Shown: positions 1,238 to 26,597 of the stretch, one piece after another
Layout: every line of letters starts with the position of its first letter
Numbering within the stretch: the first letter of the stretch is position 1
Source: a virus
Lineage: Duplodnaviria > Heunggongvirae > Uroviricota > Caudoviricetes
DNA length: 49,559 bases
Strand: one strand, 5' to 3'
Virus record (IMG/VR): IMGVR_UViG_2563366953_000002
Coordinates: 1 to 49,559 of that record
Position numbers and translations under genes: made by a program
Notes under the pieces: generated by a model
Databases searched by the model: none
What the model saw: the letters and a program-made list of their open reading frames with translations, nothing else
Told to the model about the DNA's origin: nothing

Positions 1238-1453
1238 TCATGAGTCTTTGATAAACTGATTTATCTTTGGATAGTTGTACCAGATAATCCCTCGTTTGCT
1301 GTCTGGCTTACCTAAAGGAGATACTCGTTTGAAGTGAAAGCCTTCCACCCAGCAATTCTGACGGTATGCTTCAATTTGTCTGGCCCCCAGACCAGTACGA
1401 AGCATCAGACCGTATTCAACCATCCACTCTTCATTAAAAATCACTTGTGCCAT
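1238..1453 (-). CDS. putative excisionase-like protein
   Basis: Small ORF immediately upstream of int (stop 1 nt from the int start). The ORF track begins at a TTG; an in-frame ATG at 1453 is preceded by AGAGGTGA and gives a 71-aa product. Assignment by size and position only. Confidence 0.45.
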
Positions 1454-1552
1454 CGCATCACCTCTGGCGGGCGACAATATTAGACTGAAATTGACGCCCG
1501 ACGTTGATTATTAATAATCAGCTATGAAGTTTTAATTTGAATACAATGCAAC

Positions 1553-1741
1553 TCACGAGGACAGAATTTTCTCGCAATTAAAATTTATCAGTTTTACTTT
1601 CTGTTCTCTGGAAACGCCATCTTCTTTTTTCCCTGAGAGCATTTTTTCGCATTCTGATTTCGTTAATTTAGATTTTGAATATCTTGTCCAGTTAGTAGGT
1701 GTGTCACCTTCCTTTTCAATAGTGGCGGTAATTTTATACAT
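1553..1741 (-). CDS. hypothetical small protein
   Basis: ORF 1553-1813 trimmed to the internal ATG at 1741, which is preceded by GGAGGTG and abuts the stop of the upstream gene. Confidence 0.35.
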   Translation of the reverse strand: MYKITATIEKEGDTPTNWTRYSKSKLTKSECEKMLSGKKEDGVSREQKVKLINFNCEKILSS

Positions 1742-1943
1742 GAACACCTCCATTATTATTTCCAGTAGTTCGTTTATTCCATCTTGCAAGTGCTTCTTTT
1801 TCACTTCCACCATAACCGGTTCGGGATTCGCATCCGTTACACTTCGCTCGGTAATATCCTGAAATGGCTTTCACCGTTACTGATGGACAACCACAAAATG
1901 GACATGGTTTGACTTTTTCATACCGCATTGTCTTTTTTCTCAT
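1734..1943 (-). CDS. Lar-family restriction-alleviation-like protein
   Basis: 69-aa product with a KPCPFCG...C.GC...EA..RWNKR pattern that I recall as typical of Lar-family small zinc-ribbon proteins; sits in the int-proximal part of the early operon. Confidence 0.6.
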   Translation of the reverse strand: MRKKTMRYEKVKPCPFCGCPSVTVKAISGYYRAKCNGCESRTGYGGSEKEALARWNKRTTGNNNGGVHV

Positions 1944-1991
1944 AAAATAAAGTTTTGTTATGGCGGTGAGGCTACACCGCCATAGTAAATA

Positions 1992-3044
1992 TCAGGAGCC
2001 GATATATTCTGGTTTCATATCTGTCAGTGTCGTTTTATACGCCTCATATAATTCTCCCAGATGTGGTCGTGCAGCATTCAGCGTATTTTCCAGAGCAGTA
2101 AATTTTTGTTCTGCTTCCGGATCACCTGATGAAGGCAGGTCATTTATCATCTTCTCAATACGGGCAATAGCATTGAGACGGTGATGACGCTGAACCACTT
2201 TTCCTTTAAGTTCCGTATAGAGAGCGCCAAGTGTATTTTTATGCTCTTCCACTTCCTGCCGAAGTGCTGTTGTTTCTCCGGTGCTTTGTGCCTGCTCAAT
2301 ACGTTCACGGAAAGCACTGATCCAGTTTTCCCCGGCATCCTGCTCAATAATTGTTGTTTCACGTTCCGCACGGCAGGCGGATGTGTTTTTATGTTCCTGA
2401 ACCGGATTAATGATTTTTTCCTGTTGTTCGTCCAGTTCGTCCCTGGTGTACACTCCAAGAATCACTTCAGGGCAATAAAGGCGCGCCCAGCGTTTCAGTG
2501 CCAGATAGGCAAGCTGCTGACGAGGATCATCGGCCCATAACGTTGAGTTACGTGTTCTGGCCTGCGCCAGAAGTAACTCCAGTACGCGTGGTTTGCTCTC
2601 TCCGCGTAGTGTTGCCTGGACGCGAACTCCGATTCCGTTTTCATCGGCCAGCTTCCAGCCAGGTACACGATATTCTTTCCCTTTGTCGTTCTTCCTGATT
2701 TCAAATTTCCCGATAATTTTTTCCCACGGCCCGAACCAGTCATATTCAATACGCCCGGTTAGCGGCCCACGAGTACTGATTACGGCATTAACCAGTTGCG
2801 CTTCATATCCGAGCACACCATTCACAACGAAAGTTTTCTGAGCTACTGCATAAGGATTCATTTGCCACTGCATCGCCTGCATGGTGATGGCCATGCAGTC
2901 TGATGGATTTCCTCGGAGGTGTTCCGGTACAGTAGCCATGCCGGAAGCCATTACCTGAGAAAACGTCTGAATTGCAGCCAGAGACTGAGGGCTGAAAACC
3001 GCAACATTAGAGTTAATATTTTCTTGTTGAGTTAATTCGTTCAT
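1992..3044 (-). CDS. Bet/RecT-family single-strand annealing protein
   Basis: 350-aa ORF with ATG at 3044 after GAGGAAGG. The segment ..STLWADDPRQQLAYLALKRWARLYCPEVILGVYTRDE.. aligns by eye with my recollection of lambda Bet (..GPWQSHPKRMLRHKAMIQCARLAFGFAGIYDKDE..). Lies directly downstream of the large exonuclease gene. Confidence 0.7.
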   Translation of the reverse strand: MNELTQQENINSNVAVFSPQSLAAIQTFSQVMASGMATVPEHLRGNPSDCMAITMQAMQWQMNPYAVAQKTFVVNGVLGYEAQLVNAVISTRGPLTGRIEYDWFGPWEKIIGKFEIRKNDKGKEYRVPGWKLADENGIGVRVQATLRGESKPRVLELLLAQARTRNSTLWADDPRQQLAYLALKRWARLYCPEVILGVYTRDELDEQQEKIINPVQEHKNTSACRAERETTIIEQDAGENWISAFRERIEQAQSTGETTALRQEVEEHKNTLGALYTELKGKVVQRHHRLNAIARIEKMINDLPSSGDPEAEQKFTALENTLNAARPHLGELYEAYKTTLTDMKPEYIGS

Positions 3045-3055
3045 TGTGTCCTTCC

Positions 3056-6000
3056 TCAGATGCTCAGTGCTTCAAGACGACGAAGATCAAAGTCGTTTAA
3101 TTCGTCGGTATAACTTTCGGTAATCGGTGCTGGCCAGTTGTTTGTCTCCAGCGCTTCGTTTATCTGTCGTAGCGTCCGGCGATATTCCTGTCGACCAAGT
3201 TCCAGGAGTTCCTGCGAGGCTTCCACGACTGCCACCCAGTGATAGCCAGCATCTTTGTTGACGAAGATCCAGAAAAATTTGTCCAGGTTTGCCACATCGC
3301 AATACATTGCGGCGCTGAGGTGATAATCACGCTCAATAATTTCACGGTGCAGGCGATCTTTAAGTCGTTCCTGCCGCACATAACCGAGGCTGACTGACTT
3401 CACGTCAGCGCAAATGCTTTCGTATGGCAGCCGGATTTCGATATCAGGACGGACCCTAATTTCCAGCCCGGTTTCTTCATCAAACCCGAAATAGCTGATT
3501 TCAGATTTGCGATCCGGGTGGTTGAGTAGCCTTGCTGCATCGGTATTGTTTTGCAGTGCCGCGTGAATATTTTTTGCCTGTTCATACATATCCGGACTGA
3601 TAAACGTTTTCCCGGCGTTTTCTTCTTGCTGGCGTTTTTGCCAGTCCTCCAGTGTCACCAGGTCCGGGCGAATTTTCCGTGCGATTTCGGTTAATTGCTC
3701 TTTTGTGCCACTGATGTTGTAAGGCAAAGATTTAGCACGTTCTTTTTTTGCCAGTTCTGGGTCTACAGTTTCAATTTGATCCAGAAGCTGCTCCCGTGCT
3801 CCACTGGTTTTCAACAGAGGAGGGAGGCTTGCGTTGTATTCTTTAATACAGGCTTTCATTGCTGATGCTGTGTGTTTTTCCCCCTCAGGAATACGCCGAA
3901 ACTCCTCCGGAAGCGAACCGTAAAGGATGCCTGTTTCTTCGGCCCCAGCGCTTACCGACAGTGGCTGTATAAGAGTGCTGTTGTAGCTTTCGATCCACTC
4001 TTTCATCTGCTCTGGTGTCATCAGTGATGGCAGACTGGCATTATGTTTTTTAATGATGGTGATCAGTTCGTTAGAAGTAGTAACCACATATTCAGGAACC
4101 GGTACCGGAATGGCATATTCATCAGCGAATTTATCCGTTTCCAGAACATAGCTGTGAATGATCCGCCCACGCAGCAATGCATCACTTTCCTCGTTCGGGA
4201 TAGTTCCGGCAATGTGCCGCCCGTGGTAATACATCAGACTGATGCGGGCATCCTTCAGCATTGTGCTGCTTATTCCGTTGGCGGAGTGATAAACCTCGTT
4301 CGGGAGGTTTTCATAGCGACCAGGCTCGAAATATGACGGCCACATGATTTCAGTTGCTACATGAGCTGACGCTTCACCAGTTTCATCACTGCAATCGTGA
4401 TGCGGATGGTTGCCAGCGTTCTCCTTGTGCGGATGTTCAGCGCCTTCCATTTCCTCCGGATCTTTTTCCTGAGATTCATCCAGATTTTCTCCATCGAATG
4501 TTTCCTGGTATGTTGCGTCGCCCATCACCGCACCACAGTCAGGGCAGTTATCCCCGCCAGTCTGACCGCAGGCATTGCAGACTATTTCCGGTTCCCGTTG
4601 CACTACTGGCTCAGGTTGTTTCACATCCTGACTGGTTTTTTCCGTTTCTGGCTGGTTCTGGTTCACAGAATCGCGAGTCTGGATCCCTTTAACCCATTTC
4701 GGATCATTCGGGTCGCTAATTCCGTCAACAAATTCACCACGTGATGCAGCAAGCAATTTGTCGGCATCGACAGGATTTTTTGATGGAATGTTTTTCCGGG
4801 CTTCATGGAGCTCTTCCCGCAGTTCCTGATATTTCGCATCAACAGATTTTACCTGTGACTGAGCATCCAGCGGCTGCGTGTTCTGATGATGTTCAGTTGC
4901 ATCCGGTTCCACTGTTTCAGCCGTTGCCTGTTCATTTGCCATTGCGCAAGATGGTTGCGGTTTTTCTTCATCATCCTGTTTTTCTTCTGCTACACGCTGC
5001 GGCATTGGGGCAGAGGAGCGACCGCAGGCAATATCCACGATTTCCGGATCAGGGTTGGCATGATCGGTTTCAGTCAGCACCCTGCTCAGATATTCGGTGA
5101 CACGGTGGTGGGTAGCCTCGATACCAATTGGTGCTTCTTTTACGGACGCAACCACAATGGCGCGGGAATAATCCAGCCCGCCAGGCATGGTGATGAATTT
5201 GTCGCGGAAAACAGAAAAGGGCGGTTTATTTTCAGCGATAATTTCCTCAATGCGTTTAGCGTGTGCCGGATGAAGGTTATAGATGTCCACGTCCATTGAA
5301 CGGGCCAGTACGCCAGTGGCTACGTCGCGCGCCAGTGACGTAAGATCGTGGACGAAACCTTCGCCGCGATCGGTGAGGTTCCCGCCGCCAGCATTAGCAC
5401 CGGAAGCCGTGCGAGTGATGCGTGAAACACGATTCCCTTTTCGCCATTCTTTTGTCAGAAGACCGCGATCAATGTGTTCGGTATCCAGCCAGGCTGAAAT
5501 GAAATTCTTAAATTCATAGGGCTGATGTTTTTTCGTGATAGAGAAAACCGCCTTAATTGCATCAGTCAGGCGGAGCAGGGCGGCATTATCCAGAGTTGTC
5601 GGTTCTGCCATGCCGCGTATGGCCAACAGCAGATTCTGGACATAGCTGTTTTCCTGGTCCATCTCAAGAGCAGTAATGTGTTCGCGTTGTTCACGGGTGG
5701 CATGATGCAGGTATTTCCGATCCCCGGCCGCATACGTAAAAATGTGCAGAAGACGCTGTGTGAACCGCAAAGTGGCTACAGAGACTTCGCAATCCTGGCA
5801 ATCCCCGTGGGCGTCTGCCTGCGCGTTTTCTTCCTGGCCTCCCGCCAGTTCTTTGGTTTCCTGAGCATTATCCTGGTGGTTAACGTCGTCTGGCGCTGCA
5901 CCCGGTTTTAGTTCCCAGGTCATGGAGTCTTTGCTGAGTTGATAGCGTTCACTCCAGGTAAAATCGATCTCACCTTCAGGGGGCAGGTCATTAACGACAG

Positions 6001-6274: not shown

Positions 6275-6550
6275 TCAGATTTCACCGTTTAATTTCATTG
6301 CGATCAGAGTTGCCAGAAATCCGGCTTTTTTTTCTGCGGGCAGATTCTTTCCGATGTGAACCAGGCTCATTTTTGTGACACCTTCATCAAGTGTTTTTAC
6401 GTTGCCTGATGGACCATCGATATCAACCACAGTGAATGGGGTTTCTTTATTTTCTGTTTTAATTACGTAGCCAATGCGCTTTCCTTCCAGATTCACCTCG
6501 TGAACAATGTCATCGGTAGTTACAACAGTGGTTTCATAATTGGTAATCAT
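6275..6550 (-). CDS. hypothetical protein (RacC-like position)
   Basis: ORF 6275-6598 trimmed to the ATG at 6550, which follows AAGGAGAAAAAC; 91-aa product beginning MITNYETTVV. Confidence 0.4.
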   Translation of the reverse strand: MITNYETTVVTTDDIVHEVNLEGKRIGYVIKTENKETPFTVVDIDGPSGNVKTLDEGVTKMSLVHIGKNLPAEKKAGFLATLIAMKLNGEI

Positions 6551-6624
6551 GTTTTTCTCCTTAATTAAGGTTGAGCGAATCCCTGCCATTTCTGGCATAA
6601 ATTCAGTTTCGAATAGTCAGTTAA

Positions 6625-6801
6625 TTAAAGTTCGTGTGCCATCTGGTCTTTTTCGGCACAAGCTGCACTGCAATATTTTCTCGGTTCGTCTTTTGATAAA
6701 GTCCCGTGCATGAAGTGAAGCATTCTTTCAATAGCTTTACTTTCTTCAACGTCTTTTTTGCAAAGGTGGTAAGCACATTTTATTTTCTTAGTCATCACCA
6801 T
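6625..6801 (-). CDS. small Cys-rich protein, possible zinc-binding (YdaE-like)
   Basis: 58-aa ORF hand-translated (too short for the ORF track): [16 protein letters not shown]...[17 protein letters not shown]. Its start overlaps the stop of the upstream KilR-like gene. Confidence 0.4.
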
Positions 6802-7016
6802 GACTCCGCCTTTACAGGTAAACCATCACGACCGAGGAAGACTTTAATCATGCGGTCAGTAATGCATGTTTTTGTGGTCAGGTTACGAATATAAAGTTTT
6901 CGCTTTTTAATATTGTTTGCCGAGGCAATATATGTCCGGCCTTCATGAAGAACATAATCGCCAGGAGTCACACACTGACGTGGTATTTCATCAGTTCCAA
7001 AGTGATGAGCAATCAT
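6795..7016 (-). CDS. kilR: KilR-like cell-division inhibitor
   Basis: 73-aa product from the ATG at 7016 (GGAG 8 nt upstream): [46 protein letters not shown]... matches my recollection of Rac prophage KilR. Confidence 0.55.
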
Positions 7017-10026: not shown

Positions 10027-11151
10027 ATGGTTAAGGCTAAAAATATGCCAAATCCCATGCCAAAAACTAAGGCAAACAATGAGCCTTATCGCAAGGTAAA
10101 AATAACGATATGGGATGATCCCAAATTTAGGGCGTTATCTCCTCTGCCTCCAAGTGGACAGAGTTTGTTTATTTATCTGCTGACCAGTCCATTTACCGGG
10201 ATTATTCCTGGGTTGTTTAAAGCCGGGCGGGCAGCAATGGCTGAAGAGTTGGGGTGGGATATCGAAGCCTTTGACTTAGCCTTAGGCGAAGCCATGAATC
10301 TTGGCATAGTGAAAGCAGATATCAAAGCCAGAGTTTTTTGGCTCCCGAATGCTGCGAAACACAATCCGCCAAACTCGATAAATGTCATTAAATCCTGGGC
10401 AAAGGCATTCGCTTTAATTCCTGATTGTCCTCTCAAATGGGAGGCTAGGGAATCGCTGAGAGCCGCGTCCTATGGGGTTTCTGAGGCTTTGGGGATGGCA
10501 TTCGATAAGGCAATCCCTTTGCCTGAGGATAAGCCTAAGGATAAGGCTAATGCTTTGTCATGCGGTATCCAGATAACAGATAACAGATATATAAACCCCA
10601 CACATAACGCGCGCGTGCGCGAGAGTGCTCCGGCCAGTGAGGCAAATGGCGTGCCGTTGCAGACAGCGGAACCTGATTACCTGGAAGGCCTGAACGAACC
10701 CATCGGGAAATTTCCGATGACTGATGGCTGGCATCCGTCGCTGGATTTTCGACGGCGGGCAGCTCTGTGGGGAGTGGCTCTGCCGGAGCCGGAATTTACA
10801 CCAGCTGAACTTGCCGCCTTCCGGGACTACTGGGCAGCGGAGGGGAAAGTTTTCACGCAGGTTCAGTGGGAGCAGAAATTCGCCCGTCACGTAAATCACG
10901 TCAGGGCGCAGGTTAAACCAGTCAGCAAGGGGGTGAACCATGCAGCAGCACCAGGTGGCACCGCATCACGGGCAGTTCAGGAAATTCGGGCAGCACGTGA
11001 GCAGTGGGAACGTGAAAACGGATTTATCAGCGACGGAAACGGCCTGGAAGTTGTGGGAACTCATGGGGGAGGTTTATTCGAACCGCTGGACCCAGAAGAA
11101 CGGGGCCGCACCTTCGAAGCTCTGGATTGCACAGATTGGTGCGATGACTGA
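10027..11151 (+). CDS. putative replication initiation protein (O-like / replisome organiser)
   Basis: ORF 9973-11151 trimmed to the ATG at 10027 (GAGG upstream). Sits directly upstream of the P-like gene and contains iteron-like repeats; the C-terminal tail resembles the part of lambda P upstream of its helicase-loader domain. Confidence 0.5.
10504..10625. repeat. iteron-like direct repeats with AT-rich and alternating-GC tracts (candidate ori)
   Basis: GATAAG(G/C) three times (about 10504, 10527, 10540) and AGATAACAGATAACAGATAT (about 10571-10590), followed by ATATATAAA and ACGCGCGCGTGCGCG; inside the O-like gene, as the origin is in lambda O. Confidence 0.4.
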
Positions 11152-13558: not shown

Positions 13559-13585
13559 AGGGAGGCGAGTCACCTCCCTGGTTTT
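13559..13585. terminator. bidirectional intrinsic terminator
   Basis: Hairpin AGGGAGGcgagtcaCCTCCCT with U-runs on both sides, between the convergent Q1 gene and the membrane-protein gene, whose stop codon lies inside the stem. Coordinates approximate. Confidence 0.45.
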
Positions 13586-14118
13586 ACATTTTGTTTTAGC
13601 AATATTCTAATGTTTTGTCTAATTATGATGAGGCAATGCAAAAGGAGAATTATTGTTAATATGGCTAGCCAGACACAAAAGAGACATGCGTATAGATTTG
13701 TTGATAGCCCAATAGTGAATTGTGATATTGCTGTCGTAAGTGATAACAGTATGGCAGTGTTAATAAATGATGATAAATTATCTAATGGTTTATACAAATC
13801 ACCATCATTAATTTTATCAATTGGCGTGCCAGTGGCGTTACTGTAAATAGCTCTATAATCTGGAGTTGAAAAAACTTTGTCACGTAAATTTACTATGACA
13901 AAAGTGTGTAGGCTCAATAAAAATGAACCGACGGAAATAAATCCTGAGAAAAGATATCCGCGTAAATTTCTATGATAAAAATCAAAAAAAACTTCGCTAA
14001 CTCTTGGAGTGTTTTTGTATAACAAAAACAGCCCCAGTAATACTAGGGCAGAAAATCCAAGCAGTATCACGTATTGATGTTTTAATTTTCTATTTATTAG
14101 CCATTCATATAAAGGCAT
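13570..14118 (-). CDS. polytopic membrane protein (four predicted TM helices), cargo-operon component
   Basis: 182-aa ORF with ATG at 14118. Four hydrophobic stretches (VILLGFSALVLLGLFLLY, GYLFSGFISVGSFLLSLHTFVIV, FINTAILLSLTTAISQFTIGL, LYACLFCVWLAILTIILLLHCLIII); very AT-rich; the start overlaps the upstream ORF by 14 nt, suggesting translational coupling. Confidence 0.55.
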   Translation of the reverse strand: MPLYEWLINRKLKHQYVILLGFSALVLLGLFLLYKNTPRVSEVFFDFYHRNLRGYLFSGFISVGSFLLSLHTFVIVNLRDKVFSTPDYRAIYSNATGTPIDKINDGDLYKPLDNLSSFINTAILLSLTTAISQFTIGLSTNLYACLFCVWLAILTIILLLHCLIIIRQNIRILLKQNVKPGR

Positions 14119-15035
14119 ATCTATTAGCCCCGTTTAGTATCTCATCTTTTATCATACCAAAAATAGGGTTTGTTGTATAATTGTCGCTTGTCAATCCATC
14201 TACTTTTTCGGCAATTGTATCAAAATCGTACGATTCGAAGAAAGTTGGACAATTCATAAAATCAATGACTTTTTCAAACCCAGCATGATCTACAGCTGTA
14301 ACTCTTGCTTTAACTATCCCCCCCCATTTGTTTATAGATATCATACATATGTTGAGATAGCGCTTGGATTTTCGTCTTATCCCCAGCATTAAAAGTCATG
14401 TCTATAGTGGTAGTGTTTGCAAATGGTTCAAGAGCTGTCATTGGCCCACCTTTAAAATCGATATAATTAAATTTAAATATAGTTTTTTTAATTTCTTTGA
14501 ATTGCCCTAAGATTTTTTTTATATCATCTTTATTCGTCATAATTTGAAATGATAGTCTGTCCTTATATTTTTTGTTTACAGCTATGATTTCTTTATGCTT
14601 TGGTTTATCCCCTAATGCTTTAACTTCTTTAGCATTTAGTTCCCTAATAAATTCATTGCTAATTGTCTGAAAGTGAGAGAACAGATTGTTCAGACTGCAT
14701 GAACCACGGTGGTACATGTAAAGTCCGGTAAGATTGGATTTTTTTATTAAGAAAAAATTGAAGTTGGCAAGTTTATCATTGCCCGCAAGATCTTCGATTT
14801 TCAGCTGAAACTTTCCACCCGTAAATTGTGATTTACAGTTCTTTTTTTGGTTTCGAAAGGTTACCACCAGACCATAATAATAATCATCATTTACGTCCGA
14901 TATCAGTATCCTACGAGTATAGTCGATACGGTTATGCTCCCTTGTTGATGCTCTAATAAAAGCTTCCATCACATCAGCTGTGTTAACGTTTGGGTTTGGG
15001 TTACTTATTGAAAAACCAATGCTTTTAACTCTCAT
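14105..15035 (-). pseudogene. frameshift-interrupted cargo gene: 241-aa ORF (14310-15035) continuing in a second frame (14105 to about 14330) across a G8 tract
   Basis: ATG at 15035 after AAGGTTG. The upstream frame ends ..YKQMGGDS at 14310; the second frame (..WGGIVKARVTAV..) runs to 14105. The two frames cross exactly at CCCCCCCC (14318-14325 on the plus strand); a tract of 7 would give one ORF of about 309 aa. The second frame has no SD of its own. No catalytic motifs recognised. Confidence 0.5.
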
Positions 15036-17778: not shown

Positions 17779-17854
<76 letters not shown>

Positions 17855-17857
17855 TAT

Positions 17858-17932
<75 letters not shown>

Positions 17933-20702: not shown

Positions 20703-20825
20703 CAGGCATTACAGCAGCCCTTCAGTGTGAGGGGCTGCGATAATGTCAAAGCTCGTTATCAGCACCCGCCGCGCACCCAGCGCACTGGCCGATAGCGGGC
20801 TTTTTTATTCATAAAGCGAGTCTGT

Positions 20826-21617
20826 ATGAGCGAGAAATTGAAGATCGTCTATCGCCCTTTACAAGAACTGTCTCCGTATGCACACAACGCCAGGACACAC
20901 AGCACTGAGCAGGTGGCACAACTGGTAGAAAGCATTAAGCAATTCGGCTGGACTAATCCGGTGCTGATTGATGAAAAGGGCGAAATTATTGCTGGTCACG
21001 GTCGCGTTATGGCGGCTGAAGTGCTCAAAATGGATTCCATTCCGGTCATCGTTCTGTCTGGTTTGATGGATGATCAGAAAAAGGCGTACCGCCTGGCAGA
21101 TAATCGCCTGCCGATGAATGCTGGCTGGGATGAAGATCTGTTACGGATGGAGCTGTCGGACCTAATCAATGCTGATTTTGATGTCTCCCTGACAGGCTTC
21201 AGCCCGACAGAAATTGATGAACTGTTGACGGATGTTTTGCCCGGTACAGAAAATGAGGAGGAGCCGTATACGACGAAAATTGATACACCTGTTTATGAGC
21301 CGTCAGGCGATAAACCGGATATCGGCGAACTGTACGACGATACGAAAACTCAGGAGCTGGTCAGCCGGATACGTTCGGCGTCCCTTGATCCTGATATCGA
21401 AAAATTCCTCCTGTGTGCGGCAGAACGCCACACAGTGTTTAATTTCAGCAGAATTGCGGACTATTACGCTCACGCCCCCGCTGAAATTCAGTGTTTTTTC
21501 GAGGAGTCGGCACTGGTGATCATTGATTATCAGCAGGCTATTGAAAATGGATTTGTCCGGATGACGCAGCGCATGGTGGAGATCATGCATGGTGGTGAGG
21601 AGGAGGAATATGCGTGA
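20826..21617 (+). CDS. ParB-like nuclease-domain protein
   Basis: N-terminal ..PLQELSPYAHNARTHSTEQVAQLVESIKQFGWTNPVLIDEKGEIIAGHGRVMAA.. matches the ParB/Srx-fold N-terminal domain pattern; acidic C-terminus. Confidence 0.65.
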   Translation: MSEKLKIVYRPLQELSPYAHNARTHSTEQVAQLVESIKQFGWTNPVLIDEKGEIIAGHGRVMAAEVLKMDSIPVIVLSGLMDDQKKAYRLADNRLPMNAGWDEDLLRMELSDLINADFDVSLTGFSPTEIDELLTDVLPGTENEEEPYTTKIDTPVYEPSGDKPDIGELYDDTKTQELVSRIRSASLDPDIEKFLLCAAERHTVFNFSRIADYYAHAPAEIQCFFEESALVIIDYQQAIENGFVRMTQRMVEIMHGGEEEEYA

Positions 21618-22542
21618 TGATTTTTGCGCCTTTATTCTGACTCACGGGCGACCGGACAAAGTTCTGACTTACCGGACGTTGCGTCGTGCTGGCTATACCG
21701 GGAAAATTTTTATCGTTGTTGATGATGAAGATAAGACACGGCATCAGTACATGGCTGAATTTGGTGAACAGGTGCTGGTGTTTTCCAAAGCCGATATCGC
21801 CAGTCGTTTTGACGAAGCCGATAATTTCTGTGACCGCCGCTCAATTTTTTACGCCCGTAATGCCTGTTTCGACCTGGCAAAACTGGTCGGGTGTAAATAC
21901 TTCATTCAGCTCGATGATGATTATCACGAGTTTCAGTTTCGGGTGGATCGCAACTATGACCAGGCCTATTTTCCGATAAGGAAACTGGATGCGATCCTTT
22001 CTGAAATGCTGGCGTATTACGAATCAATACCTGCTCTTTCCATCGCTATGTCGCAGGGCGGGGATTTTCTTGGTGACAATGGCGGCCATGCTTCATGGGT
22101 GAAACGCAAGGCAATGAACAGCTTTATCTGTTCGGTCGAGCGACCGTTCTCATTCATGGGGCGCATTAACGAGGATGTGAATACGTACACGAATCTCGGT
22201 CGCCGTGGTGAATTGTTTATGACGATCGGTGCTGTCCAGTTAGGGCAGAAACAGACGCAGAAAAACAGCGGCGGAATGACCGAGCTGTATCTGGATTCCG
22301 GAACCTACGTTAAAAGTTTTTACTCCGTCATGTATGCGCCGTCGTGCGTAAAAATCTCACTGATGGGTGCCAGCCATAAACGCATTCACCATCAGGTCAC
22401 CTGGAACAACGCTGCAGTAAAAATCCTTCACGAAAAATACAGGAAGAAGACACCCTGCATATCAATGGGGGTGACAAATGATTCCGTATTCGAAAGTCGA
22501 GTCTCTGGCAGCGTGCCGGATGACTGCACAACAAATAGCTGA
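21610..22542 (+). CDS. putative nucleotide-sugar transferase-like protein (GT-A-like, DxD motifs)
   Basis: ATG at 21610 after GGAGGAGGAA, overlapping the ParB-like stop. Pattern FILTHGRP...KIFIVVDDED...YFIQLDDDY is spaced like the beta-strands and DxD motif of GT-A fold transferases. Inference only. Confidence 0.35.
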   Translation: MRDDFCAFILTHGRPDKVLTYRTLRRAGYTGKIFIVVDDEDKTRHQYMAEFGEQVLVFSKADIASRFDEADNFCDRRSIFYARNACFDLAKLVGCKYFIQLDDDYHEFQFRVDRNYDQAYFPIRKLDAILSEMLAYYESIPALSIAMSQGGDFLGDNGGHASWVKRKAMNSFICSVERPFSFMGRINEDVNTYTNLGRRGELFMTIGAVQLGQKQTQKNSGGMTELYLDSGTYVKSFYSVMYAPSCVKISLMGASHKRIHHQVTWNNAAVKILHEKYRKKTPCISMGVTNDSVFESRVSGSVPDDCTTNS

Positions 22543-22729
22543 CGTTCTGGATGTTGATCTGAACCGACTGAAAGAAAATCGGGAAGCAATGACAAATTTT
22601 TATGCGTCCATCCGTAAGGGCAGAGCGAAAGGTGAAGCCGAGCTACGGGCGGCATTGTTTAAGCTTGCCAGAAAAGGGGATGCCTTTGCCCTGCGCGAAC
22701 TACTCAGGGTGGATAAAAATCAGGACTAA
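22478..22729 (+). CDS. small putative DNA-binding protein
   Basis: 83-aa ORF after GGGGTGA, overlapping the upstream gene by 65 nt; HTH-like ..MTAQQIADVLDVDLNRLKENRE..; immediately upstream of TerS. Confidence 0.3.
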   Translation: MIPYSKVESLAACRMTAQQIADVLDVDLNRLKENREAMTNFYASIRKGRAKGEAELRAALFKLARKGDAFALRELLRVDKNQD

Positions 22730-22732
22730 CTG

Positions 22733-23824
22733 ATGAGCAGACCGGACTGGGGGGCGTTGCAGCAGGAGTATATTGCTGAATACACCCGCTCCGGTATATC
22801 TCCGGTGGCATGGTGTGAAGCAAGGGGACTGAATTACGCAACAGCCCGTCGTTACATCAAAAAACCTCCGAAAAATGCGCAGACAGAAATGCGCAAAACT
22901 GCGCAAAAAAGTGCGCAGAAAAAATCTGCGCAGACTGCGCAAAAGCGGAACGGAAAATCTCAGATAAAAAAGTCAGTATCCGATGCGTGCCTGAATGAGG
23001 GCGACGCAGAGGAAATTTCATTCTGTCCCGATGAATTCGGCATTTCTGACCAGCAGGCTAAGTTTGCGATGCTGGTTGCTCAGGGGAAAAAGCCGACAGA
23101 GGCATACCGACTGGCTGGTTATGAGGGGCAAGGTGCGACAGCTAACAGCAACGCCAGCCGTATGCTTAGAAATGCCAGGGTTTATCGTGCCATTAGCTAC
23201 TTCCGCAATCAGTACCAGAAACGCTATACCGCAGACCTGGATTTACTGGTGAGCCAGTTGATGGCTATTGTCCAGGCCGACCCCAATCAGTTGGCACAAT
23301 TTCGCCGTGTTAACTGCCGTTATTGCTGGGGCGAGAATCATCTCTACCAGTGGCGTGATATTGCAGAATTCGATAAGGCAGCGGCACAGGCCTCCAGAGA
23401 TGGCAAACCCGAGCCGGAATATGGAGGCCTCGGCTTTGTTGATAACGCCATACCCAATCCGGACTGCCCGAAGTGCTGCGGTGAGGGAACGGGGCAGCTT
23501 TATATGGCTGATACCACTCTGCTTGATGGGGAGGCGCGGCAATTATATGCAGGGGCAAAGCTCGGGAAATTTGGTGTTGAGATCCTGCTGGAGGATAAGG
23601 CTGCCGCCCGGCGCGAACTTATCAAGCTGATAATGGCGACGAAAGGAAGTTCTGCTGGTGGTGCAACTGACAGTCGCAATGATCTGGAGCTTGAAGGACT
23701 GAGGCTTCGCAACGAAAAGCTGCGCACTGAGATTGAAAACCTCAAAAAAGGCGTGGGTGGTGAGAATAACGAAATAATTATCCACAACTCTCTGCCGATG
23801 CCGGGAGTGGATAATGTCGATTGA
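22733..23824 (+). CDS. terminase small subunit
   Basis: Central ..AKFAMLVAQGKKPTEAYRLAGYEGQGATANSNASRMLRNARVYRAI.. resembles the terminase small-subunit HTH pattern; four-Cys zinc-ribbon-like segment; stop overlaps the TerL start. Confidence 0.6.
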   Translation: MSRPDWGALQQEYIAEYTRSGISPVAWCEARGLNYATARRYIKKPPKNAQTEMRKTAQKSAQKKSAQTAQKRNGKSQIKKSVSDACLNEGDAEEISFCPDEFGISDQQAKFAMLVAQGKKPTEAYRLAGYEGQGATANSNASRMLRNARVYRAISYFRNQYQKRYTADLDLLVSQLMAIVQADPNQLAQFRRVNCRYCWGENHLYQWRDIAEFDKAAAQASRDGKPEPEYGGLGFVDNAIPNPDCPKCCGEGTGQLYMADTTLLDGEARQLYAGAKLGKFGVEILLEDKAAARRELIKLIMATKGSSAGGATDSRNDLELEGLRLRNEKLRTEIENLKKGVGGENNEIIIHNSLPMPGVDNVD

Positions 23825-25142
23825 AATCTATCTCCCAAAACCTCATGAGGGGCAAATAGCTGCATGGACGGCGGCAATAGAAGAACGCTTCCACGCGGTA
23901 TGCTGTGGTCGTCGCTGGGGTAAAACGGTGATGCTGGTGAACATCGCTACCAGTTTCGCTACGCGGAAATTTGCCGTTCCTACCACCGGGCAACTTATCG
24001 CGGGTAGGGTGGGGATTTTTACCGCGCAATACCGCCAGTACCAGGAAATCTGGGATGAAATTAGCGCCGTTCTGCAACCGCTGATCCTCAGTCAGTCAAA
24101 AAATGAAAAGCGCATCATTCTCCGCAATGGGGGGCGCATCGACTTTTGGGTAACGGACAATAACAAACTGGCCGGGCGTGGGCGTAAATATCACGCTGTG
24201 CTGATTGATGAGGCCGCATTCACTAAATCGCCGGAAATGCTCGAGGAAATCTGGCCCCGAGCGATACGCCCGACGCTTGTCGATTACCGTGGCTGTGCGT
24301 GGGTATTTTCCACACCAAACGGTATCGACGAGAGCAATTTTTTCTACGCGATATGCCACGATGAATCCCTGGGATTTGTTATGCACCATGCGCCAACTTC
24401 ATCGAATCCGTATATTCCGAAAGAAGAACTGGAGGAAACGGAGAAGAAATCCGATCCGCGCGTCTGGCAGCAGGAATATCTTGCAGAGTTCGTAGACTGG
24501 TCCAAAGACGCGTTACTCGATGTCGATAAGCTGCTGGTGGACGGTCAACCAATTGAGATGCCGCCGTACTGCGACATGATTTTCGCAGTGATGGATACGG
24601 CGCTGAAAGGCGGGACCGAAAATGATGGTACTGGCGTGGTGTATTTCGCTTATGAGTCAACGTATTCGGACGAGCCAAAACTGACGATTATTGACTGGGA
24701 TGTGACGCAAATTAAAGCGTCATTGCTTCCTGAATATATCCCCGGCGTTTATGACAACCTCGAGCGCCTCGCGAAATTATGCCGTCCGCGTCTGGGCAGC
24801 CAGGGAATTTTTATGGAAGACGCCGCGATGGGGGCAATCCTCAACCAGAAGGCGGAAACCGAAGGCTGGGATATGACGCCGATTAAATCGGCACTGACCA
24901 GCAAAGGTAAAGACGAACGGGCGGTGATGGCATCCAGCTACCACTATCAGGGGATGTGCAAAATCGTCCGGGAGGCTTACGACAAGACCGTTTCATTCAA
25001 ACGTACCACCGCAAACCACCTCATTAAACAAATCGCCGGGTTCCACCTGGCAGACAAAGACGCGCATAAACGTGCTGATGACCTTTTCGATTGTTATACC
25101 TATGGATTGATTATCGCGCACGGTAATTACGCGGCGTTGTAA
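23814..25142 (+). CDS. terminase large subunit
   Basis: 442 aa; Walker A-like CGRRWGKT and Walker B-like VLIDEAA in the N-terminal ATPase region; canonical position. Confidence 0.8.
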   Translation: MSIEIYLPKPHEGQIAAWTAAIEERFHAVCCGRRWGKTVMLVNIATSFATRKFAVPTTGQLIAGRVGIFTAQYRQYQEIWDEISAVLQPLILSQSKNEKRIILRNGGRIDFWVTDNNKLAGRGRKYHAVLIDEAAFTKSPEMLEEIWPRAIRPTLVDYRGCAWVFSTPNGIDESNFFYAICHDESLGFVMHHAPTSSNPYIPKEELEETEKKSDPRVWQQEYLAEFVDWSKDALLDVDKLLVDGQPIEMPPYCDMIFAVMDTALKGGTENDGTGVVYFAYESTYSDEPKLTIIDWDVTQIKASLLPEYIPGVYDNLERLAKLCRPRLGSQGIFMEDAAMGAILNQKAETEGWDMTPIKSALTSKGKDERAVMASSYHYQGMCKIVREAYDKTVSFKRTTANHLIKQIAGFHLADKDAHKRADDLFDCYTYGLIIAHGNYAAL

Positions 25143-25160
25143 AAAATCAGGATATTTTTG

Positions 25161-26597
25161 ATGGCAGAGATCGAGATTACTGGCGGCCTCGGTTCAGCAC
25201 TGATGCATATTCTTGAGGCTGAAGAAATTCAGCCGGGAACCGACATTGGCTATGAATTGTGTAAGCAGCTGTGGCAATTCCATCCTCTGGGCGGAAAACT
25301 TGTCGAAAAACCCATACTGATGGCGATGTGTAAGCCGCGCCAGTATAACGTGGAGACAGACCCTGACGAGAGGGTTGTGAGGCGTTTTCAGGAGGTATGG
25401 GAACGCATGAAGGTCAACGAGAAGATTAAAAATCTGTTTTTTCTGTCTCGTTGCTACGGTGCTGCAGCGATCGGCGTGGGCACCGACAGCGTTCCATGTC
25501 GTGAACCGCTTCCGACGTTCGGACTGACAGAAGATGACGTGTATATCAACGCGTGGGACCCGTTGAACGCTTCCGGTTCGATGGTGACTGACCAGAACCC
25601 CAACAGCCCGTTTTTCCAGGAAGCCAATAAAAAACTGAAGATTGGTGGGAAAGACTGGCATCCGTCACGCACACTGAAAATCTTCAACGGCACACCGATT
25701 TATCTGGAGTTTCAGAGTTCATCGTTCGGATTCACCGGACGAAGTGTGTTTCAGCGCGTTCTTTATTCCCTGAAATCCTATATCAACACGATGGAGGCGA
25801 ATGATCTCGTCAGCCAGAAGGCGGGCGTACTGGTAGCTAAAGTTGTGCAGTACGGTTCGAAACTTGACGGGATCATGGCTGCCGCCACGGGACGAAAAAG
25901 GGAAAACGTCAAAGAGGCAAAAAATAAAGGTGTGCTTAGTATCGGGAAGGATGAGGACGTTACCTCGCTAAATCTACAAAACATCGATGGTGCGCTAAAC
26001 GCTGCACGCGACAATATTATTTCCGATATTGCGTCAGGGAGTGACGTTCCGGCGATCCTCATCAAAGAGGAAGCCTTTTCGAATGGTTTCGGTGAGGGGA
26101 CCGAAGATTCGAAAGCCATCAGCCAGTATATCGATGGTGTACGCCAGCAGATTGAACCCGTGATGGATTATTTCGAACGCCTGGTGCAGTACATCGCCTG
26201 GAACGAGGAATTTTATCAGTCGCTGAAAAATGATTACCCGGACATCATAACTGATGACTATAAAACCACGTTTTACCAGTGGCGACGTGAATTTACCGCG
26301 ACATGGCAGGAGCTGGTGGAGGAGTCGCCGGACAAACGCCGGGAAAGCGACAGTAAAGTGATTCAACAGGCGATAGCACTTTTCTCTGCCGTGTCGCCAC
26401 AGGTTGATCCTGAAAACCGTGCCGCCGTCACTGAATGGCTGGCAAGCCTTGTTAATGCCACGCAAACCTATGGCGAAGCTCCACTCATCATTGATGTGGA
26501 CGCGCTGGCGAATTATGAACCACCGAAGCAGGAGACGCCTGATGGCAATTTCCAGCCGGGCGGTGAGGAAGAAGAAACGGATCAGGACGCTATATGA
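25161..26597 (+). CDS. putative portal protein
   Basis: 478-aa ORF directly after TerL (ORF track start is TTG at 25158; ATG at 25161); acidic C-terminus. Assigned by synteny and size. Confidence 0.5.
   Translation: MAEIEITGGLGSALMHILEAEEIQPGTDIGYELCKQLWQFHPLGGKLVEKPILMAMCKPRQYNVETDPDERVVRRFQEVWERMKVNEKIKNLFFLSRCYGAAAIGVGTDSVPCREPLPTFGLTEDDVYINAWDPLNASGSMVTDQNPNSPFFQEANKKLKIGGKDWHPSRTLKIFNGTPIYLEFQSSSFGFTGRSVFQRVLYSLKSYINTMEANDLVSQKAGVLVAKVVQYGSKLDGIMAAATGRKRENVKEAKNKGVLSIGKDEDVTSLNLQNIDGALNAARDNIISDIASGSDVPAILIKEEAFSNGFGEGTEDSKAISQYIDGVRQQIEPVMDYFERLVQYIAWNEEFYQSLKNDYPDIITDDYKTTFYQWRREFTATWQELVEESPDKRRESDSKVIQQAIALFSAVSPQVDPENRAAVTEWLASLVNATQTYGEAPLIIDVDALANYEPPKQETPDGNFQPGGEEEETDQDAI

Follow-up and report, generated by a model that had tools for sequence, protein, structure and literature searches.

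What does a prophage gain from a ParB-like gene that runs into the reading frame of a putative sugar transferase just upstream of its packaging genes, and on what molecule would such a pair act? The locus lies in a 49,559-nucleotide stretch of DNA (the window), and its host element is a Rac-like Escherichia coli prophage with a contractile tail. An earlier note on this DNA had read the two genes, from motifs, as a ParB-like nuclease-domain protein and a DxD-motif transferase that would fit DNA modification or anti-restriction. To our knowledge, every known case of DNA glycosylation in phages follows the action of enzymes that first make 5hmC or 5hmU. In a published survey, about 65% of the viral contigs with a glycosyltransferase (GT) had no 5hmC- or 5hmU-making enzyme nearby, and the role of these GTs was left open. 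The window is a tractable example of this orphan GT class: a module of two genes, carried by a prophage that is common in E. coli and has close relatives naturally without the pair.

Both genes lie on the + strand. The ParB-like partner gene (20826..21617) encodes 263 aa and is the full-length form of K-12 YnaK, while the gene that follows (21610..22542) encodes a GT of 310 aa from the TAGT (TET-associated glycosyltransferase) family. The mechanical ORF of the latter spans 21589-22542 (317 aa); the ATG at 21610, which gives the 310-aa protein, is the start used in the databases and the one meant in the earlier note. This ATG is preceded by a strong Shine-Dalgarno sequence, GAGGAGGAGGAA, and the ParB-like stop codon occupies 21615-21617, giving the overlap that the note had described, 8 nt in length, within a translational-coupling junction at 21596..21617 (+). 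The 3' end of the TAGT gene is in turn overlapped by a small ORF (22520..22729, +; 69 aa when read from the start set by PGAP) whose product is similar to part of a terminase small subunit (phrog_309, E 2.5e-22). It is a PGAP CDS in the identical E. coli locus, and a counterpart beside the pair is absent in the phi jlb1, Porphyromonas and NTR1 contexts. The terminase small subunit gene TerS (22733-23824, +) and, after it, the large subunit gene TerL (23814-25142, +) stand directly downstream, with matches across 22733..25142 to Pfam Terminase_2 and Terminase_6N and to phrog_51 and phrog_2, so the placement of the pair upstream of the terminase holds. No promoter-like site above background was detected upstream of the pair, nor any parS-like palindrome or palindromic repeat family above background around the cassette.

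The 310-aa protein is a GT-A-fold nucleotide-sugar transferase of the TAGT family. Profile searches could have placed it in a non-transferase family; instead they bore out the GT-A guess of the earlier note, matching Pfam PF20691 TAGT (E 1.3e-35, 123.6 bits against a cut-off of 27.5, positions 4-205 of 205) and phrog_842 (E 2.5e-103), and PF20691 is present in all 120 homologues listed. The newer PGAP and UniRef name for the protein is 'GREB1-related protein', and NCBIfam has no model for TAGT. The AF2 model has an alternating β-α core, with a pLDDT of 76.6 overall and of at least 90 for most of residues 1-215, the GT-A core. Its best Foldseek matches in the PDB are all GT-A enzymes (GpgS, SpsA, SunS/ThuS, glycogenin and GnT-I) at low TM (about 0.3-0.4), and its best matches in BFVD are TAGT-domain phage proteins with TM values of 0.73-0.81. 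A PDB sequence search with the protein and with the family profile returned nothing.

The active-site elements of the enzyme are intact. In an alignment of 60 homologues sharing 59-98% identity, R14 (21649..21651, +), the first GT-A active-site element, is invariant, as is D102-D103-D104, followed by Y105 (21913..21921, +; GATGATGATTAT), the metal- and nucleotide-sugar-binding motif of DxD type that the note had singled out. The third element, N187-E188-D189 (22168..22176, +), supplies the 'ED' of EDY/F; N187 and D189 do not vary in the alignment, and E188 reaches at least 90% conservation. The arrangement R...DDD...EDY/F is the published signature of phage DNA GT-A enzymes and of JGT, the kinetoplastid base-J glucosyltransferase (bioRxiv 10.1101/2023.12.21.572611). 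Characterised phage members of the TAGT family glycosylate modified bases in DNA, the second glucose of T6 being one example (Burke 2021, PMC8256090; Pyle 2024, bioRxiv 10.1101/2023.12.21.572611; PMC13390438; for the family, Iyer et al. 2013 as quoted by later papers). The protein shares Pfam family, GT-A fold and signature with known TAGTs, including the metavirome 5hmC GTs and the T2/T6 beta-glucosyl-HMC alpha-glucosyltransferase, and like known phage TAGTs it is phage-encoded and soluble, with no membrane or Gtr-type features. Its matches among T4-like TAGTs (Aeromonas phages 65 and Ah1) are 22-24% identical to it, and the pI is 8.0-8.7.

The partner has a composite layout, in which a ParB/Srx NTP-binding fold is followed by short helices, an acidic disordered linker and a conserved C-terminal module. 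In the AF2 model these correspond to a nucleotide-binding domain (NBD) at residues 1-100, helices at 103-134, a disordered segment at 137-168 and a helical region at 172-255. The N-terminal module with its helices (residues 1-136; 20826..21233, +) is predicted with pLDDT mostly above 80. It matches Pfam PF02195 ParB_N (28.3 bits, cut-off 26.3) and phrog_620 'ParB-like partition protein' (E 4.9e-89), and Foldseek aligns the model with the CTPase domains of ParB, Noc, PadC and KorB (E 1.6e-6 to 1e-5; PDB entries 6sdk, 7nfu, 7bnk and 8qa9). ParB N-domains were also the only matches in a PDB sequence/profile search, and PGAP names the protein 'ynaK ParB/Srx family N-terminal domain-containing protein'. 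The GHGR that the earlier note had recognised is box II (GxxR) of the ParB NTP-binding pocket (20994..21005, +). It lies within IAGHGR, residues 55-60, and aligns with GERR of Noc/ParB, with G57, G59 and R60 invariant in the partner alignment. The invariant D92-N93 aligns with box III 'EN' of Noc, so that the pocket variants in the partner are GHGR for GERR and D for E.

The partner thus resembles ParB, Noc and KorB of ParABS systems in its N-terminal NTP-binding fold, GxxR arginine and (E/D)N box. Unlike ParABS ParB, it belongs to a late phage operon, has a strongly acidic sequence along its whole length (pI 4.43) and lacks ParA, parS, an HTH domain and a canonical C-terminal dimerisation domain. 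No HTH or other DNA-binding domain was recognisable by Pfam profiles or in the AF2 model, Pfam gave no HTH_ParB or dimerisation-domain match, TIGR00180 scored 35.6 bits, under its cut-off of 58.45, and neither the window nor the identical locus as annotated by PGAP contains a ParA. Of the description 'DNA-binding ParB', the ParB/Srx fold therefore stands and the DNA binding does not find a recognisable domain in this acidic protein; 'nuclease' is a historical Pfam label, and nothing indicates nuclease activity.

The N-module also has relatives in enzymatic fusions. In prophages, ParB-CTPase-fold domains are fused to N6/N4 DNA methyltransferases (Kaljevic et al., PNAS 2025, PMC12704722), and residues 3-142 of the partner match phrog_498 'DNA methyltransferase' (E 1.7e-50) while residues 10-146 match PADLOC MTase_II (E 1.1e-38, profile positions 13-153 of 436). 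On the strength of these alignments, the first 140-146 residues of the partner and the N-terminal part of the phage fusions are clearly homologous. Unlike in those fusions, the catalytic partner here is a separate protein and a glycosyltransferase; no methyltransferase domain follows the N-module, and the C-module stands in its place.

Two further segments of the partner are conserved. The acidic linker (residues 137-171; 21234..21338, +) is predicted to be disordered, with pLDDT below 50 at 137-168, and yet it carries the motif Y148-[ST]149-x-K151-I-x-x-P155-x-Y157-E-P159 (21267-21302, +), whose residues are invariant in 15 partners from E. coli, Lactobacillus, Vibrio, haloarchaeal viruses and metagenomes. 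The C-terminal 'TAGT-partner' module (residues 146-263; 21261..21614, +) is acidic and unannotated. Its invariant residues are L195, R201-H202, F205, A211, Y214, E226, L230, D234, A238 and G242, and AF2 predicts roughly 115 all-helical residues at low confidence (pLDDT 35-79). No credible Pfam or PDB relative of the module emerged, the PDB search giving spurious repeat-protein matches only. The module is present in the ORF directly upstream of TAGT in all 86 loci compared, and it forms 1174 representative clusters, occupying the C-terminal end of the protein in nearly all of the 150 listed. In Vibrio phage pv27 it is a stand-alone protein (E 4e-43), and in Vibrio jumbo phages the partner consists of the C-module alone, with no ParB fold. 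Thus, the constant element of the partner is the unannotated acidic C-module and not the ParB fold, and the enzyme cannot depend on a ParB clamp.

The pairing itself is widely kept. At all 86 related loci a partner ORF runs into the TAGT start, and the overlap measures 8-17 nt at 82 of 88 junctions. Phages of Lactobacillus, Nocardia and Porphyromonas repeat the order ParB-TAGT(-terminase), which is found with at least three terminase types, and the ParB-TAGT genes of a haloarchaeal virus lie about 3 kb upstream of TerL; in all, the pairing extends across five phyla and into Archaea. In virulent Lactobacillus phage c5 the two genes are ORF1 and ORF2, beside cos, and P0378 is a natural fusion of TAGT, ParB_N and C-module in one protein. 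Small cultured phages with counterparts are Lactobacillus c5 and phi jlb1, Nocardia NTR1 and Haloarcula HHTV-2; the HHTV-2 literature yielded nothing on DNA modification. Together, the TAGT and phrog_842 E-values and an overlapping pair at every one of the 86 loci lie far beyond chance, and pairing by chance is rejected. Unlike other known TAGTs, this clade is marked by an obligate upstream partner gene and a terminase-adjacent position.

In E. coli the pair is carried as cargo. The cassette, delimited by blastn break-points at 20807..23026, comprises the ParB-like gene, TAGT, a small HTH ORF and the 5' portion of TerS. Phage vB_Apl-pPE4 has 335 bp in place of these 2220 bp, and among close relatives with the same flank and terminase, pPE4 has the slot empty whereas Rac-SA53 holds LT-IIa toxin genes in it. 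Since such pair-less relatives use the same terminase to package their DNA, the pair is dispensable for packaging, and the place that it occupies is a dispensable cargo slot. Of 5426 complete E. coli genomes, 889 (roughly one in six) contain 80% or more of the pair. Both genes are under purifying selection, as dN/dS is 0.06-0.2 for TAGT and 0.07-0.16 for the partner, in each case from closer alleles, distant ones being unusable because dS is saturated.

These data bear on whether the two genes are neighbours merely by accident, a ParB-like nuclease or partition protein beside an unrelated GT moron such as a cell-surface or O-antigen modifier, or else decaying remnants. Historical annotations ('chromosome (plasmid) partitioning protein', 'ParB-like nuclease', 'hypothetical protein') would suit that reading, as would the K-12 Rac prophage, which retains only a stump of the first gene, and the 677 genomes that carry partial matches only among the 1566 E. 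coli genomes with any match. It is nevertheless at odds with the co-occurrence and overlapping frames at 86 of 86 loci, the retention of the pairing across five phyla and Archaea, the natural fusion protein and the purifying selection on both genes. Nor does it sit with the lack of ParA, HTH or parS-like repeat, with a soluble TAGT that has no membrane or Gtr-type features, or with pair-less relatives that package DNA with the same terminase. Incidental adjacency is effectively refuted by these comparative data, and we consider it extremely improbable.

If the pair is a functional unit, what is its acceptor? The known acceptors of DNA-type TAGTs are 5hmC, 5hmU or a sugar already attached to either, and E. 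coli DNA contains neither base. The ORFs scanned in the 49.6-kb window yielded no TET/JBP (5mYOX) enzyme, no thymidylate-synthase-type hydroxymethylase and no C5-methyltransferase. Nor were such enzymes found in Lactobacillus phage c5, whose genome was covered in full (31.8 kb), or in the 8-10 kb around TAGT at other loci: three contexts with Pfam annotation have none within 8 kb, and none recurs among 138 upstream ORFs of 16 loci. A very divergent 5mYOX would escape these Pfam-based searches. With no 5hmC- or 5hmU-making enzyme in the phage, the known TAGT acceptors are not supplied. Unlike the genomes of canonical TAGTs, this one has no TET/5mYOX, C5-methyltransferase or dCMP/dUMP hydroxymethylase. 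A hidden modification enzyme was suspected in the low-GC ORFs at 13570-15035 and rejected: they are a split phrog_2802 gene of unassigned function with no Pfam or PADLOC match.

One answer would be that the target is not encoded by the phage at all. The pair might glycosylate 5hmC, 5hmU or glucosyl-hmC in the DNA of a rival phage, in inter-phage warfare or superinfection exclusion, or might act on a host small molecule, for example as an anti-defence function that glycosylates a nucleotide immune signal. The T6 TAGT does add a sugar to glucosyl-hmC, T-even phages prey on E. coli, and the GT survey raises the possibility that prophage GTs hypermodify invading genomes. The toxin genes held by the same cargo slot in relatives would also fit, as would the diverse NTPs bound by the ParB fold (PMC12704722). 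However, the two genes belong to the late operon, and upstream of them no promoter-like site rises above background; the pair also occurs in an archaeal virus, and it forms ORF1 and ORF2 of c5, a virulent phage for which prophage-mediated exclusion is meaningless. The cos- or terminase-adjacent position kept across phyla would be unneeded by a generic anti-defence moron, and the PADLOC matches of both proteins are limited to the methyltransferase N-module. An external target is, in our judgement, quite improbable.

A second answer is that the acceptor is protein. In this case TAGT would O-glycosylate its partner, or a packaging or virion protein from the adjacent genes, and the partner would be a substrate, primer or targeting subunit; on the partner itself the target could be Y148, S/T149 or Y157 of the disordered motif, in a glycogenin-like or substrate-adaptor arrangement. 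The family offers a precedent, as human GREB1, a TAGT-family protein, O-GlcNAcylates ER-alpha on Thr/Ser (PMC7968844), making protein acceptors possible. According to the literature, JGT and animal GREB1 belong to the same GT-A superfamily and clade as phage TAGTs; unlike the 310-aa protein they are eukaryotic and multidomain, and the likeness is taken from the literature alone. The closest folds in our structural searches include the peptide S-glycosyltransferases SunS/ThuS and self-glucosylating glycogenin, generic GT-A matches whose low TM (about 0.3-0.4) tells against reading much into them. The invariant Tyr/Ser-Thr/Tyr motif within a predicted-disordered segment would suit a glycosylation site, but a docking peptide explains its conservation equally well. 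Also on the side of a protein acceptor are the proximity of structural and packaging genes, the acidic partner with no DNA-binding domain, the Vibrio phages that pair TAGT with the C-module alone and the fact that no DNA acceptor pathway was found in these phages. Against it, the characterised viral and kinetoplastid TAGT/JGT enzymes all act on DNA, and elsewhere the ParB NTP-binding fold goes with DNA transactions and, in phages, with DNA-modifying enzymes (methyltransferase fusions and 5mYOX activators). We regard protein glycosylation as rather unlikely.

We consider that phage DNA is the target in the reading to which we give an even chance, namely that the ParB-like protein serves as activator or tether for a DNA glycosyltransferase acting late on phage DNA. 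The experimental precedent is the ParB-dependent phage thymine dioxygenases, in which ParB176 activates 5mYOX176 on dsDNA, terminases and GTs are frequent neighbours, and the pairs are cognate-specific (O'Toole et al., PNAS 2026, PMC13229309). As in that system, the gene for an enzyme of a DNA-modification family adjoins a dedicated ParB-like gene, and ParB176 and the partner have in common an NBD, short helices, a long disordered linker, a C-terminal domain (CTD) and the lack of a DNA-binding domain. The two differ in that 5mYOX176 is a 2OG/Fe dioxygenase whereas the enzyme here is a GT-A glycosyltransferase, with a dioxygenase wholly absent. The partner is also longer, 263 aa compared with 194 aa for ParB176, and unlike in ParB176 its C-module is roughly 115 aa, predicted all-helical, equipped with enzyme-like invariant residues and separable from the ParB fold. 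A further relative by enzyme family is JGT, which requires JBP-made 5hmU; we know of no ParB-like partner described for JGT or GREB1.

On this reading, the two genes would form one accessory, late-expressed module of the Rac-like prophage. The 310-aa TAGT would be an active GT-A glycosyltransferase taking a host nucleotide-sugar as donor, with the 263-aa protein as its dedicated partner, the helical C-module most likely binding the transferase. By analogy with the dioxygenases, the partner would activate TAGT or tether it on double-stranded phage DNA, possibly as an NTP-gated clamp, and contact with the DNA could come from the mildly basic TAGT enzyme. Glycosylation would then follow replication, at about the time of packaging, and might serve counter-defence or mark the DNA. 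We infer that the two proteins interact physically, that the genes are expressed late and that DNA is the target, and the biological role is inferred with them. Points counted against the DNA model are the acidic partner with no DNA-binding domain, the C-module-only partners, GREB1 and the missing acceptor pathway.

The identities of the TAGT and ParB folds, the coupling of the genes and the precedent of the ParB-dependent T-dioxygenases (PMC13229309) make DNA modification the leading hypothesis; as no 5hmC- or 5hmU-making enzyme was found, the DNA-modification and anti-restriction function that the earlier note had proposed is a putative one. A bolder variant would dispense with the hydroxymethylated base: the pair would attach its sugar to a canonical base, to a phosphate or to the end of the DNA, and perhaps do so locally, around the packaging site. 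The RH, E, D and Y residues of the C-module might then supply part of acceptor recognition or catalysis. We think this variant unlikely. Were it true, it would constitute a previously unknown post-replicative glycosylation chemistry for which two phage proteins suffice, and it would occur in about one complete E. coli genome in six as well as in phages whose hosts range from Firmicutes to haloarchaea.

Each acceptor would have its own consequences. If it is DNA, the pair would make a new DNA modification, relevant to evasion of restriction and defence, to sequencing artefacts and to enzyme tools; if it is protein, phage TAGTs would be protein glycosyltransferases like human GREB1. The locus adds to a role of ParB-fold proteins that has only lately been recognised, as partners to enzymes that modify DNA, and it defines an unannotated partner domain with about 1,170 sequence clusters.

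Finally, the locus bears on an orphan gene of the laboratory strain. Homology between the window and the K-12 Rac prophage stops at window position 21079, and K-12 YdaY, tried as a TAGT remnant, has no similarity to the enzyme. K-12 YnaK corresponds to partner residues 1-85 only. On this sequence comparison, the K-12 orphan gene ynaK is a stump of the partner gene.

[quoted passage not shown] Both open reading frames proposed in the earlier note exist at these positions. The first contains the IAGHGR motif and matches Pfam ParB_N and phrog_620, bearing out its ParB-like assignment, while the second starts at ATG 21610, as its proposed length of 310 aa implied, has GAGGAGGAGGAA ahead of it as a Shine-Dalgarno sequence and overlaps the ParB-like stop by 8 nt.

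The 310-aa protein matches the Pfam TAGT profile with an E value of 1.3e-35, far over the curated cut-off, and phrog_842 with an E value of 2.5e-103; its newer PGAP and UniRef name is "GREB1-related protein". An AlphaFold2 model, with 60 homologues as input, showed a confident GT-A core. Foldseek searches with this model against the PDB returned GT-A enzymes only, and their low TM scores indicate that there is no close solved structure; against a viral library they returned TAGT-domain phage proteins (TM 0.73-0.81). Residues R14, D102-D103-D104-Y105, N187 and D189 are invariant and E188 is at least 90% conserved, which reproduces the published "R...DDD...EDY/F" active-site signature of phage DNA glycosyltransferases and the base-J glucosyltransferase (bioRxiv 10.1101/2023.12.21.572611). 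The DxD motif of the earlier note is the DDD at residues 102-104, invariant across the family, and its identification of a GT-A nucleotide-sugar transferase was right by profile match, fold model and active-site residues. This family is known for modifying DNA, and the T6 enzyme that places the second glucose on glucosyl-hmC is a member of the same Pfam family.

Residues 1-136 of the ParB-like partner are predicted, by structural model and Foldseek, to adopt the ParB/Noc/KorB-type NTP-binding domain fold. The box II arginine is kept (G57-H-G59-R60) and the invariant D92-N93 aligns with the "EN" of box III. This N-terminal module matches phrog_498 (E 1.7e-50) and PADLOC MTase_II (E 1.1e-38) and, as judged by sequence, shares ancestry with the corresponding module of phage ParB-methyltransferase fusions. 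Profile searches of the partner found neither an HTH DNA-binding domain nor a canonical dimerisation domain, and annotation and a repeat search found no ParA or parS-like repeat at the locus. The partner is acidic along its whole length (pI 4.4); after the N-terminal module, an acidic, predicted-disordered linker leads into a C-terminal region, predicted to be helical, whose model is poor but whose sequence is conserved very strongly. In PGAP annotation the gene is ynaK. The K-12 YnaK protein (b1365, 87 aa) corresponds only to residues 1-85 of the full 263 aa; homology of K-12 ynaK (fetched locus 2378-2641) to the window stops at 21079, and the remainder of the gene has been lost from the cryptic Rac prophage along with the transferase gene. 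YdaY, which adjoins ynaK in K-12, is unrelated to TAGT.

Alignment of 15 of the most divergent partners revealed an invariant motif, Y148-[ST]-x-K-I-x-x-P-x-Y-E-P, within the disordered segment, and invariant L195, R201-H202, F205, Y214, E226, D234 and G242 in the helical part. Sequence searches with this C-terminal module (residues 146-263, window 21261-21614) yielded no convincing match to a Pfam family or a solved structure. An exhaustive search placed it in 1174 representative clusters at 50% identity; among the 150 matches listed it is the C-terminal end of nearly all proteins and lies mostly behind a ParB-type N-region. In Vibrio jumbo phages a 139-aa ORF upstream of TAGT (Vibrio phage pv27, fetched locus 6459-6878) consists of nothing but the module (E 4e-43) and lacks the ParB fold. 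The module is an unannotated domain family and the constant partner of TAGT. Its invariant Tyr/Ser-Thr/Tyr motif is also a candidate acceptor should TAGT carry out protein O-glycosylation, the main rival to a role on DNA and one with an in-family precedent in GREB1 (PMC7968844), which we nevertheless consider unlikely.

The pairing was counted in 86 fetched loci with a TAGT of the same clade (58-100% identity). The ORF directly upstream carries the C-terminal module in all 86 and a detectable ParB N-domain as well in 84, and the reading frames overlap by 8-17 nt at 82 of the 88 junctions examined. In Pfam-annotated contexts ParB_N is followed by TAGT, at times in two copies, and by terminases of three types; none of these contexts has a TET/JBP gene closer than 8 kb. 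A tblastn search of cultured phages found overlapping pairs in the Lactobacillus phages c5 (ORF1 and ORF2, immediately beside cos and preceding the terminase) and phi jlb1 (in the order ParB-TAGT-TerS-TerL), Nocardia phage NTR1, Porphyromonas phages (TAGT identity 26%) and the haloarchaeal virus HHTV-2. A 534-aa protein of the representative library, P0378, is a natural, Pfam-confirmed fusion of TAGT, ParB N-domain and C-terminal module; because this domain order is opposite to that of the operon, it is not a read-through product. Both genes are under purifying selection (dN/dS 0.06-0.2). Pairing of TAGT with its partner is obligatory in this clade, and chance adjacency is effectively excluded.

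Soil metagenome and Sphingomicrobium MAG contigs (fetched 1357-3938) carry the partner followed by two tandem TAGT paralogues, an arrangement suggesting that two sugars are added sequentially in some phages; an HNH endonuclease gene precedes the partner gene.

DNA-type TAGTs are known to glycosylate 5hmC, 5hmU or a sugar that one of these bases already bears. Among the window ORFs scanned there was no TET/JBP dioxygenase, thymidylate-synthase-type hydroxymethylase or C5-methyltransferase, although very divergent dioxygenases could escape Pfam. No hydroxymethyl-base enzyme recurred in 138 ORFs sampled at 16 diverse loci from the 10 kb preceding the pair, and none was found in the complete genome of the virulent phage c5 (31.8 kb, 50 ORFs).

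The closest experimental precedent for the pair is the system of O'Toole et al. 2026, in which phage ParB-like proteins are required for a cognate thymine dioxygenase to work on double-stranded DNA (PMC13229309). Those proteins have a layout like that of the partner, with an NBD, short helices, a disordered linker of roughly 50 aa and a CTD but no DNA-binding domain, and the authors proposed that the enzyme takes the place of the DNA-binding domain, with the NBD on one side and the CTD on the other (PMC13229309). Aravind and colleagues had earlier suggested, as quoted in PMC8256090, that ParB may direct modification enzymes during packaging, and ParB-fold-methyltransferase fusions are enriched in prophages (PMC12704722). 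Because of the ParB-dependent dioxygenase and ParB-methyltransferase precedents, we favour, at about an even chance, the reading that the pair may form a two-component DNA glycosylation module. The partner's motif and C-terminal module would dock the mildly basic TAGT (pI 8.0-8.7), which late in infection would be held on phage DNA or activated there. Weighing most against this are the missing acceptor pathway, the fact that the partner is acidic and lacks a DNA-binding domain, and the existence in Vibrio phages of a version with no ParB fold.

Both families, and a ParB-GT-terminase association noted in surveys, were already known. The literature searched held no account of a partner-coupled TAGT clade without any hydroxymethyl-base pathway, of an obligate C-terminal partner module of TAGT or of the clade's prevalence in E. 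coli prophages. A glycosyltransferase survey put orphan enzymes of such kind aside as unclear in function (bioRxiv 10.1101/2023.12.21.572611); with the pair, this question becomes directly testable.

In the window, a Rac-like lambdoid E. coli prophage, the integrase gene (1-1236, minus strand) is followed by genes for RecT, RecE/ExoVIII (1039 aa), a cI-like repressor and YdaS/YdaT, then by replication genes and two Q-type antiterminators. The tRNA-Thr(TGT) and tRNA-Gly(TCC) genes (17779-17932) separate a Q-like gene from the lysis cassette, which comprises two holins and a GH108 endolysin; next come the pair, TerS, TerL, portal and head genes, and a contractile-tail module (sheath, baseplate, fibres). 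No promoter-like site over background was found upstream of the pair, which together with gene orientation suggests late expression from a Q-dependent operon. Action on foreign hm-DNA or small molecules is disfavoured, and to us improbable, given this late-operon location, the presence of the pair in a virulent phage and its conserved place beside cos and terminase.

The 1.76-kb segment with the pair is 100% identical in E. coli SC418 (NZ_LR778147). Among 5426 complete E. coli genomes, 1566 have a match to it, which in 889 spans at least 80% of the segment. Phage vB_Apl-pPE4 aligns with the window at about 95% identity along the left flank to 20806 and in the terminase from 23027, with 335 bp (fetched locus 2146-2480) in place of the window's 2220 bp, and in the Escherichia phage Rac-SA53 LT-IIa enterotoxin genes occupy the same slot (fetched locus 1989-3129). 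This slot, which separates the lysis genes from TerS, is a hot-spot for cargo, empty in pPE4 and filled by ParB-TAGT here; packaging therefore does not need the pair.

The recorded host of pPE4 (PP818812.1, "Actinobacillus phage vB_Apl-pPE4") is Actinobacillus pleuropneumoniae. Its DNA is about 95% identical to this E. coli Rac-like prophage in the lysis-flank and terminase regions; the host assignment looks questionable, and pPE4 may be an induced E. coli prophage. The SC418 prophage, despite its identical ParB-TAGT segment, has an early region unlike the window's, including a small SAM-dependent methyltransferase (fetched locus 10400-10843), a difference that exemplifies how the pair moves as a mosaic module in its own right.

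A low-GC island (13570-15035, minus strand; GC 0.37 versus about 0.50) separates the two Q-type genes. Its ORFs 14310-15035 and 14105-14389 jointly span the 308-aa phrog_2802, whose function is unknown, and have the look of a single frameshift-split gene; ORF 13570-14118 had no match in Pfam, PHROGs or PADLOC. Short direct repeats (TGCGCAGA with A-rich spacers) are clustered at 22858-22934 inside TerS, where they code for a repetitive AQK-rich segment and contribute most of the excess of "terminator-like" matches in the region (13, where 2.8 were expected); the cluster may be a pac array or one that TerS binds, or just coding sequence of low complexity. The protein at the portal position (25158-26597, 479 aa) had no PADLOC match, and the name that PGAP gives it at the identical locus in E. 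coli, "anti-CBASS protein Acb1 family protein", looks doubtful given its position and size.
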